Origin: Escherichia phage vB_vPM_PD112
Strand: one strand, 5' to 3'
Sequence record: NC_054928.1
Length of the DNA: 64,000 nt
Shown: in pieces, positions 6,075 to 43,875 of the stretch
Layout: each line of letters begins with the position of its first letter
Position numbering within the stretch: position 1 is the stretch's first letter
Position numbers and translations under genes: made by a program
The notes under the pieces: model-generated
Told to the model about the DNA's origin: nothing
Database searches by the model: none
What the model saw: only the letters and a program-made list of their open reading frames with translations

Positions 6075-7034
6075 TCACTTCCACTGCATTTCGCATGCCA
6101 ATTGAATGAAAAGATATGCTAAATGTAATTCCGTATTAGCCGCAATTCCATGATACTGGTTATTTTCACCAACAATTTCATACATACGAATAATACTTTG
6201 CGGAGTTACGCGTGTATAAATTTCTTCGGCAAGTTTACCAACGAACCACGAATAATCAGCCGCATATTTTGGTGCTAAAGCTCTGAGTTGTTTAACATCT
6301 TTATTTTTGAGAGACTCAAGAACATCATCAATAGCACCACGATCGTTAGTAACCAGTGATAAAATACCAGCATCCAAAACACCTTTAGATGAATAACTAT
6401 CGAGCTCACCAATAGTTTTACGAAAATCAGGAAAATTCTTTTTAACCAAAGCTGCTACAACTTTCATATCAGCTATAGCAATTCCTTCACGCTTGCAGAT
6501 TTCAGTCAATCGACGAATCATCTGCTTCATCATTTCAATTTTATCTTCATCGGTCGGTTGACCGAATGTGATAACTCGACAGCGTGACTGAAGCGGTTTA
6601 ATAATACCATCAATATTGTTAGCAGTAATAATAATACTACAGTTTGAACTATAAGCTTCCATAAAGGAACGAAGATGTCGCTGAGATTCTGCTAACCCTG
6701 AACGGTCAAATTCATCAATAACGATTACTTTTTGACGACCATCAAATGAAGCGGCGCTGGCAAAATTAGTCAAAGGACCACGAACGAAATCAATTTTACA
6801 ATCTGATCCATTCACAAACATCATATCAGCATTTACATCATGACACAATGCTTTTGCTACAGTTGTTTTACCTGTTCCTGGAGAAGGAGAATGAAGAATA
6901 ATATGTGGAATCTTACCTTTACTTGTAATAGATTTAAAGGTTTCTTTATCAAAGGCGGGAAGAATACATTCATCGATAGTAGATGGACGATATTTCTGTT
7001 CAAGAATGTGTTCTTTTTCATTTACGGTAATCAT
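6075..7034 (-). CDS. 44: clamp loader AAA+ ATPase subunit; probable ATG at 7034 (MITVNEKEH)
   Basis: Walker [11 protein letters not shown], Walker B VIVIDEFD; T4 gp44 synteny. Confidence 0.9.
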
Positions 7035-7066
7035 AATTTCCTCATTCAAGTTTTAGTGTAAATTAT

Positions 7067-7084
7067 AAAGGGCCGAAGCCCTTT
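7067..7084 (-). terminator. hairpin terminator between genes 45 and 44
   Basis: aaagggccgaagcccttt inverted repeat immediately after gene 45 stop. Confidence 0.5.
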
Positions 7085-33977: not shown

Positions 33978-34559
33978 CTAACCGAGCTTTTTAGTTAATT
34001 CATTCCAATGTTTTCTACACAAAGAAACATAAATTTCATCACCAATACAGATTTGATTACCTTCTTTAACGGGTGTTCCATCTTCCATTAATCGAGCTGT
34101 CATAATAGCTTTTTTACCACAATGACAAACTGCCTTTAGTTCAATAAGTTTATCTGCAATCGCCAAAAGTTCTTTAGAACCTTCAAATAATTTTCCGGCG
34201 AAATCAGTCCTTAGACCATAGGCCATAACAGGAACATTATATGTATCAACAATTCGGCTCAATTGATGCACCTGTTCAGTTTTTAAAAACTGGGCTTCAT
34301 CTACAAATACGCAATGAATATCTTTTTGTGCTTCAGCCCATTTATAGAACTCGAAAATATCCATATCATCTGTAATAATATTTGCTTCCTGCTTAATTCC
34401 AATGCGAGAAACGACTTCACAGACAGAATCGCGAGTATCAATAGCAGGCTTAAGAACTAATACACTCATTCCGCGCTCTTTATAATTATGCGCAGCAGTC
34501 AAAAGAGAAGCAGATTTTCCAGCATTCATTGCTGCATAAGTAAAAATTAAACTCGCCAT
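33978..34559 (-). CDS. tk: thymidine kinase
   Basis: 193 aa; P-loop AAMNAGKS; T4 Tk length. Confidence 0.9.
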   Translation of the reverse strand: MASLIFTYAAMNAGKSASLLTAAHNYKERGMSVLVLKPAIDTRDSVCEVVSRIGIKQEANIITDDMDIFEFYKWAEAQKDIHCVFVDEAQFLKTEQVHQLSRIVDTYNVPVMAYGLRTDFAGKLFEGSKELLAIADKLIELKAVCHCGKKAIMTARLMEDGTPVKEGNQICIGDEIYVSLCRKHWNELTKKLG

Positions 34560-39899: not shown

Positions 39900-40430
<531 letters not shown>

Positions 40431-40886
40431 TTAAAAGAGGTTGTTCATTATTCGGTAAAGTGAAGGACCCATCACATATTGCCACTGAGTACGAGGAATA
40501 AGAGCAAAAGCGTCCATCTCTGGAATCATAACGCCATCTTTATTTTCAAAATAAGACTCGCAATGGCAATTTCTAAACATCTCATGCTCTACTGGAATCG
40601 TATAATAAAATAACTGTAAGTCTTTATTACTAGAATATTTAAATACACCTAGGTCTTCTAGAAGGTCTGGATTATAATTGCTAAAACCAGTCTCTTCTAA
40701 ACATTCTCTTCGTGCTGCATCTAGTACGCTTAAATCAGAATTTTCTACGCGGCCCTTTGGGATATCCCAGCGATGTGCCATCATTCCAGGCTTACGAGAA
40801 CCAGTAACCCGTCCCATGAATAAATCTTTATCTTCGGTCATAAAGATAATACCAGCTGATAGTGTTTTCATTTTAATTTCCTGCAT
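40431..40886 (-). CDS. nudE: Nudix hydrolase
   Basis: 151 aa; Nudix box GRVENSDLSVLDAARRECLEETG. Confidence 0.85.
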   Translation of the reverse strand: MQEIKMKTLSAGIIFMTEDKDLFMGRVTGSRKPGMMAHRWDIPKGRVENSDLSVLDAARRECLEETGFSNYNPDLLEDLGVFKYSSNKDLQLFYYTIPVEHEMFRNCHCESYFENKDGVMIPEMDAFALIPRTQWQYVMGPSLYRIMNNLF

Positions 40887-41356
40887 TCAGTGATAAAGTT
40901 ATTTAAATTTTGAGTATATTTCTTTTCATCAAAAATCTTTTGTTGTCTGCGTAGCCGCCATGGCATTTCAATGAACGTGTACCATATCCCAGATAATATT
41001 GCTGCTGTAAAAATATTAACAAGTATGGTTAAAAGAATCCAATCTCCTATTCTGTCCATTGGATTTTTTATAAAAAAGTAAAATACGAATGATGTCACAG
41101 GAAGACTAATAATATACCACAGAATCATAATCTTATCTGTGAACCAATCAGCGTTCGTTAATTTAGCGCGACCATTATGAATACACACGAATTTATCATC
41201 TGTTGCAGTAGATGGCTTAACTGGTTGATATCCCATTCTAAACTCCCTAATCAGCAAATTTTTCATATCTTCGGAACAGCCATTCCAGTCAACTCTATCA
41301 ACTGGAATGCCATCATCCCCATCATCTAAATCATACCAGCGAGTTTTTAAAATCAT
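40868..41356 (-). CDS. membrane protein, member of F-[IV]-x-[ED]-C-R-K tail family (e.2 position)
   Basis: Two TM segments; C-terminus NNFITECRKLK. Confidence 0.5.
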   Translation of the reverse strand: MILKTRWYDLDDGDDGIPVDRVDWNGCSEDMKNLLIREFRMGYQPVKPSTATDDKFVCIHNGRAKLTNADWFTDKIMILWYIISLPVTSFVFYFFIKNPMDRIGDWILLTILVNIFTAAILSGIWYTFIEMPWRLRRQQKIFDEKKYTQNLNNFITECRKLK

Positions 41357-41715
41357 CTGATTTTCCTACAATCACTTACAAACTCTTTCATTGATTCATT
41401 TTCAATATAAGACATGTAGTTATTATATTCTTTTAATTGTATTTTGTAATCCTTTTTTCTTTGCCAATTTATTTTAAAATTATCATAATGAAAATATAAC
41501 ATGGTACCAAAGAATGAAAATAATGAAATCGCTATAGTAAAACGAAGTTCACTCCAAACCTCTGTTATAATTGCTGAACCATCGATGTTTAAAATAATAC
41601 AGTCAATCATTAATCCAATAAGACTACCCGCAAGAGCTGTAAATACTGATACAGCAAGAATTAATAGTGCCTCAGGAAACGAATATTTGACTTTATTTAG
41701 TTTTGGCTTTTGCAT
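41353..41715 (-). CDS. membrane protein, same tail-motif family (e.3 position)
   Basis: Two TM segments; C-terminus KEFVSDCRKIR. Confidence 0.5.
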   Translation of the reverse strand: MQKPKLNKVKYSFPEALLILAVSVFTALAGSLIGLMIDCIILNIDGSAIITEVWSELRFTIAISLFSFFGTMLYFHYDNFKINWQRKKDYKIQLKEYNNYMSYIENESMKEFVSDCRKIR

Positions 41716-42089
41716 CGTGATTCCTTAACAAATTTCATAATTTCATCAAATTCATACGCAGCAAGTTTAAGCTGATGTTCTTTTTTAATCTTTTTGCACT
41801 GGGCTTTCCACTCACGTACGCGTTTACGATAATGTCTTCCTTGATACCAGTATCCTACCCAATTTACAGGTACTAATAAAAGCGGAATTATTAATGGAAG
41901 AATTAGTGTTGCTCCAAATATTGCACCAGATTCAATATCAGTCATAACGTCTATAACCATTCCAGCAATCAGCAGAATCACAAATGATACAGCTACCACA
42001 GGACCTATTAATACATCAGTAGGAATTAGCTGACGCTTTAGTTCATACTTCACAGGTTTACTTGGAAGGTATAGTGATGGCTTTGACAT
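41697..42089 (-). CDS. membrane protein, same tail-motif family (e.4 position); probable ATG at 42089
   Basis: Two TM segments; C-terminus MKFVKESRCKSQN. Confidence 0.5.
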   Translation of the reverse strand: MSKPSLYLPSKPVKYELKRQLIPTDVLIGPVVAVSFVILLIAGMVIDVMTDIESGAIFGATLILPLIIPLLLVPVNWVGYWYQGRHYRKRVREWKAQCKKIKKEHQLKLAAYEFDEIMKFVKESRCKSQN

Positions 42090-42666
42090 ATTCTCTACAT
42101 TCCTTAACAAATTTTTCTAGTAATAAATCGCTTTCAAAATTAGGATTTTCCACGAATTTATCAAAAAGATCATCAACAATAGTCAAGATATTCTTTTTAC
42201 TAAGAATACGCTTATTTTCATATTTTGTTTCAGAATCAACTATAAGAGTAAAGAAATATTTCTTTCCCTGAAATTTTACCGTAGTATCAATATAGAACAA
42301 ATTTGACTTTTGTAAATTACGTTTAAACCATGCGTCACTTAAACTATAAACGCCAAGATAATCATAATCGTCGTTTAAATAACAAACTGTCCATTCAGGA
42401 GAAATGAAATCAGTAAATTCAACATCAAAATCACACGTCAATGAATGAATTGATTCAATACTTTTAATGAGTATTCCAGGGCGTATTAAAGACTTTTTAC
42501 CTCTATAAAATCTTCCAGAAAGACTTTCATCAGTTTCATACGAAGAGCCCCAATAGTAATTACGTCCTTCTGCCATACGTTTAAGAGCATTTAGTAATTG
42601 GTCTGGAACATCAACTTGTCTTTGGAACTCTTCAAACATTGAATTGAAATCATTTTGCATTCTCAT
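42058..42666 (-). CDS. soluble protein carrying the same C-terminal motif (e.5 position)
   Basis: 202 aa; C-terminus EKFVKECREYVKAITIPSK. Confidence 0.5.
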   Translation of the reverse strand: MRMQNDFNSMFEEFQRQVDVPDQLLNALKRMAEGRNYYWGSSYETDESLSGRFYRGKKSLIRPGILIKSIESIHSLTCDFDVEFTDFISPEWTVCYLNDDYDYLGVYSLSDAWFKRNLQKSNLFYIDTTVKFQGKKYFFTLIVDSETKYENKRILSKKNILTIVDDLFDKFVENPNFESDLLLEKFVKECREYVKAITIPSK

Positions 42667-42686
42667 TCCTATTTACTCCAAGTAAT

Positions 42687-42702
42687 AGGGGCCGAAGCCC
42701 CT
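42687..42702 (-). terminator. hairpin (ggggccGAAGcccc)
   Basis: aggggccgaagcccct inverted repeat. Confidence 0.4.
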
Positions 42703-42707
42703 TATCA

Positions 42708-43301
42708 TTATTTCAGAGAATTAATATATTCCTGGACATCGGCAGAGGTGGTTTCAACCCCAGAAATATTACCATTAAAGGTTTCAACTCGAGCAAGAGT
42801 ATCTTCAATATCAACCTTGGTCAGTGCTGCAATTTCAACTACATCATCAGCAGTACTAATTCCAAGGGCATTTGCCGCACGAGTTTCACGGATATATTCC
42901 AATTTAACTGCAAGTTCTTGGCGAGCATCATCTAACTCAACTACTTTCTTGGCGATTTCAATTCGCATTTCAGCATAACCATCAGCTTTAGTAGTCAACT
43001 GCTCAGCTGTTCGACGATATAGTAAACCGAGCTTAGCATGCATTGTTACATCTTGACCTTCGGAAAGAAGTTTGCGAATTTCACGCTCTTTTGATTCGGC
43101 TTGTCGATTCTTTTCGATAACAAGTTCACGAATACGTTTTTCTTCATTAATAGATTTAACAGAAGCAGTTTTTAGGTCTTTAATTTTATCAAGAAGTTTT
43201 GCTGCTGCAGCAGTATACTGTTCTTCGACAGATAGATTTTTAGCCATAGCAGAACCAAGTTTAGTGCGAATAAACTCAACAATTTTCTTCAGTGTGTTCA
43301 T
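42708..43301 (-). CDS. coiled-coil protein, possibly PspA/IM30-like (e.6 position)
   Basis: 197 aa, predicted helical coiled coil throughout; composition resembles PspA. Confidence 0.35.
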
Positions 43302-43344
43302 AGTATTTCCTTAGGTTAATTGAGATTTAAAATCTGCGGAAGAA

Positions 43345-43875
43345 TTATATCCCATTATTTGAGAGATGTAAACTATTTTTAATTTTACAAATTCGTTCAG
43401 CTTCATCGATAGCAGCATTAATAATGCTTTTAGCTATAGGAGTACTAATACTAGTAGCTTTTACACTTAACACGATTTCTTTATCTTTACCAGGCCAACC
43501 CCACGATTTTTCACCGTGAGTGCCTTTAATTACAGCAGACACCTCAAGTGAGCATCCATTATCACATGTTTTTACATTAACAACCCAAGGGTCACTTTTC
43601 TCAATCGGTTTCTCAATCGGTTTATCCCAGTAAATATTAAGAATACGTGGAACATCAAATTTGGCAGGACAAATCTTAACCGTAAGACCTTCGCTTTCTA
43701 GCCAATTAATAAGAGGGCGTTCATACAGGCGACGATGTGGGCTTGGGATTCGACAAGCCTTATGTCCGTTGCTTGCGGCTTCACTAAGCTGTTCTAATAC
43801 CTGCTTTTGCATTATTGATAAAATACCATCAAAAGATTTTTCGGAAGTTTCATTCAGTTCAGTATAAAGAGACAT
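43345..43875 (-). CDS. hypothetical protein (e.7 position)
   Basis: 176 aa ORF. Confidence 0.45.
   Translation of the reverse strand: MSLYTELNETSEKSFDGILSIMQKQVLEQLSEAASNGHKACRIPSPHRRLYERPLINWLESEGLTVKICPAKFDVPRILNIYWDKPIEKPIEKSDPWVVNVKTCDNGCSLEVSAVIKGTHGEKSWGWPGKDKEIVLSVKATSISTPIAKSIINAAIDEAERICKIKNSLHLSNNGI

Follow-up and report, generated by a model that had tools for sequence, protein, structure and literature searches.

A C-Terminal Peptide Motif on Largely Unrelated Proteins Encoded Downstream of Gene e.6 in T4-Type Phages

Introduction

Docking onto a hub protein through a C-terminal peptide is known from the clamp-binding tails of the replication and late-transcription proteins of phage T4 and from the C-terminal tail of SSB. 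The Psp and Lia systems combine an ESCRT-III-like effector (PspA or LiaH) with small membrane anchors (PspB and PspC, or LiaI), and class II holins present two transmembrane helices in an N-in/C-in arrangement, a charged C-terminal tail and a gene adjoining that of the endolysin. Finally, Promoter-early stem-loop (PeSL) cassettes were reportedly proposed by Arbiol and colleagues in 2010 to mediate modular shuffling in the hyperplastic regions of T4-type genomes. Here we report on a locus of Escherichia phage vB_vPM_PD112 (sequence record NC_054928.1), analysed within a stretch of 64,000 nucleotides called the window hereafter, in which the genes e.2, e.3, e.4 and e.5, all lying downstream of gene e.6, end in a common peptide motif, present in e.4 as a variant devoid of its cysteine.

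Genes e.2 to e.6 are still annotated as hypothetical, though T4 is the best-studied large phage. What is new in the present analysis is a C-terminal motif which spans protein families, is maintained at the peptide level, is tied to e.6 and is overlaid both on the translation initiation region of the gene that follows and on recombination repeats. This one signature connects three to five genes in each genome, throughout the T-even genera, and gives a handle on an uncharacterised block, on its pathway and on its partner.

The C-Terminal Motif and Its Distribution

The window is of the Tequatrovirus type: its gene block is collinear with e, nudE and e.2 to e.6 of T4, and vB_EcoM_IME537 is 99.2% identical over a 3.1-kb query (window 40300-43400). 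A first-pass annotation had singled out four open reading frames (ORFs) with similar ends, which matched T4 genes e.2, e.3, e.4 and e.5; it placed them after nudE, while in the direction of transcription they lie upstream of it. These genes, their tails and e.6 are the following (aa, amino acids; nt, nucleotides):

42708..43301, minus strand: e.6, 197 aa, predicted to consist of helices only, including one at the N-terminus and a long hairpin
42058..42666, minus strand: e.5, soluble protein of 202 aa, overlapping e.4 by 32 nt
42094..42120, minus strand: tail motif of e.5, LEKFVKECR; the K-E codons AAGGAA are the Shine-Dalgarno sequence of e.4, whose ATG lies in ..GAATATG..
41697..42089, minus strand: e.4, membrane protein with two transmembrane helices, 130 aa, overlapping e.3 by 19 nt
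41715..41741, minus strand: tail motif of e.4, IMKFVKESR, the variant without cysteine; AAGGAA is the Shine-Dalgarno sequence of e.3, whose ATG lies in ..CGATGC..
41353..41715, minus strand: e.3, membrane protein with two transmembrane helices, 120 aa, paralogue of e.4, with an ATGA stop/start overlap with e.2
41365..41391, minus strand: tail motif of e.3, MKEFVSDCR; the R-K codons that follow, AGGAAA, are the Shine-Dalgarno sequence of e.2
40868..41356, minus strand: e.2, 162 aa, with a soluble N-terminal part of 77 aa, a hairpin of two transmembrane helices and the tail; ATGA overlap with nudE
40880..40906, minus strand: tail motif of e.2, LNNFITECR; the AGGAAA that follows is the Shine-Dalgarno sequence of nudE

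The true start of e.4 is MSKPSLYL and not the TTG upstream of it. All four tails quoted in the first-pass annotation were recovered: NNFITECRKLK in e.2, KEFVSDCRKIR in e.3, and MKFVKESRCKSQN and EKFVKECREYVKAITIPSK for the others; NLNNFITECRKLK is an example of the tail peptide. The motif it proposed, F-[IV]-x-[ED]-C-R-K, fits e.2 and e.3 exactly and has to be relaxed for the two other proteins, since the final K is replaced by E in e.5 and a Ser stands at the position of the Cys in e.4. A Cys does occur nearby in e.4 (RCK), because of the overlap with the start codon of e.3. The part shared by the four proteins is a C-terminal helix of 10-20 residues with the pattern h-x-x-F-[IV]-x-x-C-[RK]. 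When the set of FIxxC[RK] tails is defined by h-x-x-[FW]-[IVL]-x-x-C-[RK] in the last 16-25 residues of a protein encoded on the same strand downstream of e.6, it includes e.2, e.3 and e.5, and e.4 joins it through the variant without Cys.

A chance or low-complexity origin of the tail is rejected by the counts obtained in the window, in T4 and in the Tevenvirinae loci. Only 5 of the 321 ORFs of the window contain the relaxed motif [FWY][IVL]..C[RK], namely e.2, e.3, e.5, thymidine kinase and one spurious ORF, and a scan of the whole T4 genome found the motif near a C-terminus nowhere besides e.2, e.3 and e.5. The thymidine kinase (33978-34559, minus strand, 193 aa) has YVSLCRK 11 residues from its end; it is the sole other real gene of the window fitting the relaxed pattern, and we judged the match coincidental.

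For the Tevenvirinae, we used 34 loci from IMG/VR anchored on e.6 (identity 54-100%) and three annotated phages of other genera. The relaxed motif was present in the last 25 residues of 122 out of 943 same-strand ORFs, all downstream of e.6. When the count is restricted to the 31 full-length loci, 88 of the 418 ORFs downstream of e.6 have the strict motif within their last 16 aa and none of the 410 upstream do; the variant tail without Cys is found in 26 ORFs downstream versus 9 upstream. Thirty of these 31 loci have three to five genes with the Cys motif (the remaining one has a single gene), and the first gene after e.6 bears it in 29. Tail-motif genes directly follow e.6 also where its identity falls to about 48%, and likewise in Aeromonas phages 31 and ZPAH1. 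In every Tevenvirinae locus examined, e.6 precedes such genes; two very distant homologues of e.6 are not followed by any. The four ORFs are conserved as coding sequences in relatives: tblastn matched e.3 in 666 phage records and, for e.4, in 681, the matches being almost always of full length.

One Tail on Many Bodies

The first-pass annotation regarded the four genes as paralogues. Paralogy was assessed by profile-profile comparison (hhalign) of the family alignments, with and without the tails. For e.3 against e.4, the comparison gave 95.9% over 114 columns and still 83% once the tails were removed, and the two proteins share an M-x-K-P-x-L start. For e.2 against e.3, it gave 88% over 21 columns of the tail only, the body alone giving 1%; e.2 against e.4 reached 5.5%, and e.5 aligned with e.2, e.3 and e.4 over no more than 9-16 columns, all in the tail. 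Each of the four proteins belongs to a PHROG of its own. As far as these profiles can tell, homology beyond the tail holds for e.3 and e.4 alone, and e.2 to e.5 do not make up one family of paralogues. Without their tails, the carriers are grouped by BLAST into at least 23 clusters, of which 14 are hydrophobic (mostly with two transmembrane helices) and 9 are soluble. The tail appears, then, to be a module attached to many unrelated bodies, always in genes that come after e.6.

Kyte-Doolittle analysis bore out the two-helix hydrophobic hairpin followed by a basic C-terminal segment that had been noticed in e.2, e.3 and e.4, with helices at residues 78-96 and 107-125, 17-35 and 57-75, and 31-49 and 57-75, respectively; by the same analysis e.5 has no hydrophobic helix. 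The loops of these hairpins are short and contain 0-2 Lys/Arg, while the C-segments contain 9-15. These counts fit the positive-inside rule, which would place the tails in the cytoplasm.

No Pfam family was matched by e.2 to e.5 in the copy searched, and no known Cys-motif family in Pfam, NCBIfam or PHROGs. For the body of e.5, the AF2 model is poor (pLDDT 60), its Foldseek comparison with the PDB gave TM-scores of about 0.2, which are meaningless, and the PDB profile search, Pfam, NCBIfam and PADLOC were all without a match. PHROGs place e.5 in families of unknown function only (phrog_2607), and PF26876 is listed for it in the database. Some deposited annotations label two genes of the block "sulfurtransferase", which no family search supports.

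Selection on the Peptide

The way in which the tail is encoded was analysed on 92 distinct tail-coding segments. The Cys of the motif is encoded equally by TGT (46) and TGC (46), the Arg uses all six codons (CGT 27, AGA 26, AGG 18, CGC 9, CGA 6, CGG 1) and the Phe, in place of which a Trp is sometimes present, uses TTT (62) and TTC (25). Third codon positions hold little information, about 0.1-1.0 bit. This free variation of the codons indicates that selection acts on the peptide and not on an RNA or DNA element. The families themselves tell the same: motif residues are among the few invariant positions of each one, down to 14-32% identity. For e.5 (14 sequences, 13-48% identity), these are F186, C190 and R191, besides which only M1 and N98 are invariant; the tail invariants are F154, C158 and R159 in e.2, and F112 and C116 in e.3, and the invariants of e.4 are F120, K122, E123, R125 and C98. 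The motif is real, and so are its selection as a peptide, its distribution, its overlap with the next gene and the chimeric junction that it forms on gene deletion, the last two being described below.

A hydrophobic residue is present at position -3 in 80 of the 92 segments, though this position lies outside the search pattern. Hydrophobic residues are spaced at -3, 1, 2 and 5, which indicates one face of a helix. Such a face, flanked by Lys and Arg, with Trp replacing Phe in some tails and a hydrophobic moment of 0.36-0.48, is what an amphipathic helix would need for targeting the inner leaflet of the membrane, in the manner of the C-termini of MinD and FtsA. We consider this explanation highly improbable: the mean hydrophobicity is negative (-0.15 to -0.48), the proteins with two transmembrane helices need no further anchor, and an invariant Cys and an invariant Arg are not expected for lipid binding.

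Overlap with the Translation Start of the Following Gene

The codons of the tail have a second role, absent from the first-pass annotation: ribosomes that translate the next gene would bind at them. The Shine-Dalgarno sequence of that gene consists of the R-K codons AGG AAA in e.2 and e.3, seven bases before the ATGA overlap, and of the K-E codons AAG GAA in e.4 and e.5. Ribosome-binding sites are annotated at the equivalent places in phages 107 and 55. As the Shine-Dalgarno sequence and the start of the next gene lie within the tail codons, positions 3, 4 and 7 of the motif are biased towards K-E, K-G or R-K.

These observations raise the question of whether the tail could be nothing else than a shadow cast on the coding sequence by the translation start of the next gene, similar nucleotides yielding similar amino acids with no role for the peptide. 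The R-K and K-E codons, the sites annotated in the two phages and the bias of positions 3, 4 and 7 to K, E and G across loci are all in line with it, and the overlap does explain part of the similarity between tails. The conserved F, I/V, C and R are, however, not Shine-Dalgarno codons; their codons vary freely at the third position and, for Arg, at the first one too; and F, C and R do not change within families of 14-20% protein identity. Moreover, the part of the motif that coincides with the Shine-Dalgarno sequence differs from gene to gene: positions 3-4 in e.4 and e.5, and 6-7 in e.2 and e.3. The same shift is seen within one gene, as the end of the Mosigvirus e.3 (FIKECRK) has its Shine-Dalgarno sequence at K-E, while the T4-type e.3, two residues longer, has it at R-K with F, C and R kept. 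The motif is even retained where the signal is elsewhere: in phage SP18, the e.5-like tail FIAECRE is without a Shine-Dalgarno-like sequence, and the AAAGGGG for the likely start sits further downstream. The statistics of the codons and the changing place of the Shine-Dalgarno sequence thus reject a pure ribosome-binding-site artefact, and such a shadow as the sole origin of the tail is very unlikely.

Recombination between Tail-Coding Repeats

The tails also behave as repeats in recombination. Gene e.2 is missing in three T4-like genomes (L006, UFV-AREG1 and 236Ecol005PP), and in all three the tail of e.3 is chimeric, being composed of a 5' part of e.3 and a 3' part of the e.2 tail (..GATTGCAGGAAATTAAAATGA-nudE). 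The crossover took place in TG[TC]AGGAAA and e.3 then ends in CRKLK; e.2 has been removed exactly, without a shift of frame, leaving the ATGA overlap with nudE intact. The three junctions are identical and may therefore represent a single inherited event. In the window, the tails of e.4 and e.5 have 16 identical nucleotides in common, AAATTTGTTAAGGAAT. Through tail codons acting as short direct repeats, gene-sized units are lost, and presumably also gained, in frame. In the T4-like contig L006, where e.2 is deleted, a frame change in e.5 (6636-7073) leaves a protein of 145 aa that has lost its tail.

One may ask, then, whether the tail is both a relic and a tool of cassette shuffling by unequal recombination, persisting through copying and not through a function of the peptide. 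The chimeric tail of all the genomes without e.2 and the 16-nt identity of the e.4 and e.5 tails speak for it, and a tandem duplication unit offset from the gene boundaries would give the same tail to all copies. We nevertheless find it rather improbable: across genera, the nucleotide identity of the tails is low and the amino acids are kept, F, C and R could not stay invariant through so deep a divergence unless purifying selection acted on the peptide, and the three identical junctions may go back to one event. What the locus does present is one stretch of DNA under three constraints (a motif in the peptide, a ribosome-binding site for the gene that follows and a repeat used in recombination) and, as these are overlaid, the region can diversify fast without breaking its overlapping frames.

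Proposed Function of the Tail

A common partner of the tails, already suggested in the first-pass annotation, is the most economical reading of a motif which is selected as a peptide and carried by unrelated bodies, and it is plausible. We propose, tentatively and with a probability of roughly 45%, that the tail is a docking helix by which all these proteins bind one common partner on the cytoplasmic side of the inner membrane, with e.6 as the leading candidate. The short C-terminal helix of e.2 to e.5 would dock onto the same partner; tail proteins with two transmembrane helices would tether it to the inner membrane, and soluble carriers would act as competitors for it or as its regulators. 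The best candidate would be e.6, which is always adjacent; alternatively, the tails might associate with one another or bind a protein of the host. Docking as a function and e.6 as the partner are, like the cytoplasmic location of the tails, what we infer.

Several observations weigh against this proposal. In the orthologues of the e.4 lineage, S, I, V or M systematically occupies the position of the Cys. The protein e.6 contains no Cys, and the invariant Cys of the tails is thus not explained by it. The genes that follow the two very distant e.6 homologues have no tail motif. Apart from the whole-T4 scan, the co-occurrence was viewed from the side of e.6. Finally, in a CRISPRi-ART study of T4, e.2 to e.6 and nudE were all classified as "Not Fit", with no fitness effect on laboratory E. 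coli (PMC11879866, supplementary file 15); since knocking these genes down had no effect, any function would be conditional.

The Cys itself suggests another explanation, in which the motif would be a reactive or liganding site, the invariant Cys beside Arg/Lys serving for a shared metal, redox sensing or covalent modification. It is the most strictly conserved position, its two codons being evenly split, there is one conserved cytoplasmic Cys per protein, and e.4 retains another conserved Cys, C98. A single Cys per chain cannot make a site alone, though, and neither its replacement in the e.4 lineage nor the lack of a match to any known Cys-motif family in Pfam, NCBIfam and PHROGs is favourable. 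We hold this chemistry to be unlikely; it is not exclusive of docking.

The laboratory phenotype bears on yet another possibility, raised in the first-pass annotation, that these genes are factors of superinfection exclusion, envelope interference or defence interference. They are small, fast-diversifying and dispensable early membrane proteins, and the lack of a fitness effect in the laboratory is typical of accessory, host-specific genes. On the other side, BLASTP against T4 Imm, Sp, Ac, holin T and RIII gave nothing better than E = 1, the PADLOC models gave no match at E up to 0.1 for e.2 to e.6, and such a role leaves both the soluble tail carriers and the tie to e.6 unexplained. It seems to us an improbable account of the block.

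The e.6 Protein as a Candidate Partner

The structural model of e.6 has a moderate pLDDT of 77 and consists of an N-terminal helix, a hairpin of 55 + 60 residues and three short helices. When Foldseek was run with this model, eight Vipp1/PspA structures ranked first, with E-values of 3e-3 to 1.4e-2. The sequence tests were all negative and reject e.6 as a PspA/IM30/Vipp1 protein by sequence: e.6 and 36 homologues had no Pfam match at E up to 1, PspA_IM30 included; hhalign against E. coli PspA gave 0.4%; a profile search of the PDB returned nothing; and an exhaustive profile search retrieved only 46 e.6-like proteins. The ESCRT-III fold has an amphipathic helix at the N-terminus, a long hairpin of alpha1 with alpha2/3 and then shorter helices. 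The likeness of the modelled fold to Vipp1/PspA is ambiguous and, with negative sequence tests and a model of moderate quality, an ESCRT-III-like scaffold for e.6 is a lead and not a result. For e.2, e.3 and e.4, no PspB, PspC or LiaI match above noise was obtained in Pfam and NCBIfam.

From this lead, one may imagine a T-even module for membrane remodelling or protection, with e.6 as an ESCRT-III/PspA-like or BAR-like scaffold and diversifying adaptors (e.2 to e.5 and at least 20 other families). The adaptors would plug into e.6 via their Cys-containing C-terminal helix, those with two transmembrane helices tethering it and the soluble ones regulating it, and the tail-coding repeats would allow adaptors to be swapped in frame. 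As a whole, this scheme is conjectural and unlikely. If true, with e.6 as the partner and PspA/Vipp1-like, it would be a phage-encoded counterpart of the membrane-stress machinery of the host. A survey of Psp systems does not mention phages (PMC11237479). No paper on the motif or on a link between e.6 and PspA was found in the literature covered, which is without most subscription journals and gives weak evidence of novelty.

Organization of the Locus

The remaining features of the block are the following:

43344..43372, minus strand: early-promoter-like site upstream of e.6, GTTTACA - 17 nt - TATAAT, with 11/12 consensus matches (consensus match alone)
42687..42702, minus strand: GGGGC-UUCG-GCCCC, a GC-rich hairpin whose loop is UUCG, in the spacer between e.6 and e.5
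40431..40871, minus strand: nudE, Nudix hydrolase (PF00293, E 6e-14), without the tail motif, last in the overlapping chain
39900-40394, minus strand: e (lysozyme), neighbour gene of the block

The early-promoter-like site is the probable start of an e.6-to-nudE transcription unit. The hairpin has no T-run on the coding strand and looks more like an RNA-stabilising or processing element than a terminator. From e.5 to nudE, successive reading frames overlap by 32, 19, 4 and 4 nt, the layout expected for translational coupling, and e.6-e.5-e.4-e.3-e.2-nudE apparently form an early operon.

In the T4 reference (NC_000866, record positions 67472-67960), e.2 is annotated with 102 aa and is disrupted with respect to the intact ORF of 162 aa of the window: it is in frame 0, then in frame 2, then again in frame 0. 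These changes would reflect either a compensating pair of frameshifts or an old sequencing error, and the C-terminal fragment still contains the coding sequence of NNFITECRKLK.

A second tandem family was observed in the same region in Mosigvirus, Gaprivervirus and other genera. It consists of small soluble proteins of 65-105 aa which all end in G-x-W-[VI]-S-S-S-x-x-C immediately before the stop, and TAAGGAA..ATG often connects one gene to the following one. It is found in loci L003 (3357-4151) and L004 (3691-4479), and also in L012, L021, L025, L030, L038 and L047; no member with this end is present in the window.

Comparison with Known Systems

In its gene order, the locus resembles the PspA-PspB/C and LiaH-LiaI pairs: a predicted helical-hairpin protein, e.6, is followed by small membrane proteins whose tails would be cytoplasmic. 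It differs from them in that e.6 has no sequence relation to PspA and the FIxxCR tail is not known from Psp systems. In their architecture, and in lying close to gene e, e.3 and e.4 also recall class II holins. In this case, the differences are the early-promoter-like site that precedes the operon, the soluble tail carriers, which do not fit a holin, and the lack of sequence similarity between e.2 to e.5 and T4's own holin T.

With the PeSL cassettes, the locus has in common short repeats at gene boundaries, a plastic T4-type region and the gain or loss of small genes; unlike theirs, its repeat is coding and kept as a peptide instead of being a promoter or a stem-loop, and its nucleotides are not conserved across genera. 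Finally, as in the hub-docking tails, a short peptide stands at or near the extreme C-terminus of otherwise unrelated proteins, which implies competition for one site, whereas here the sequence motif is another one, the carriers are clustered in one apparent operon and many of them are membrane proteins.

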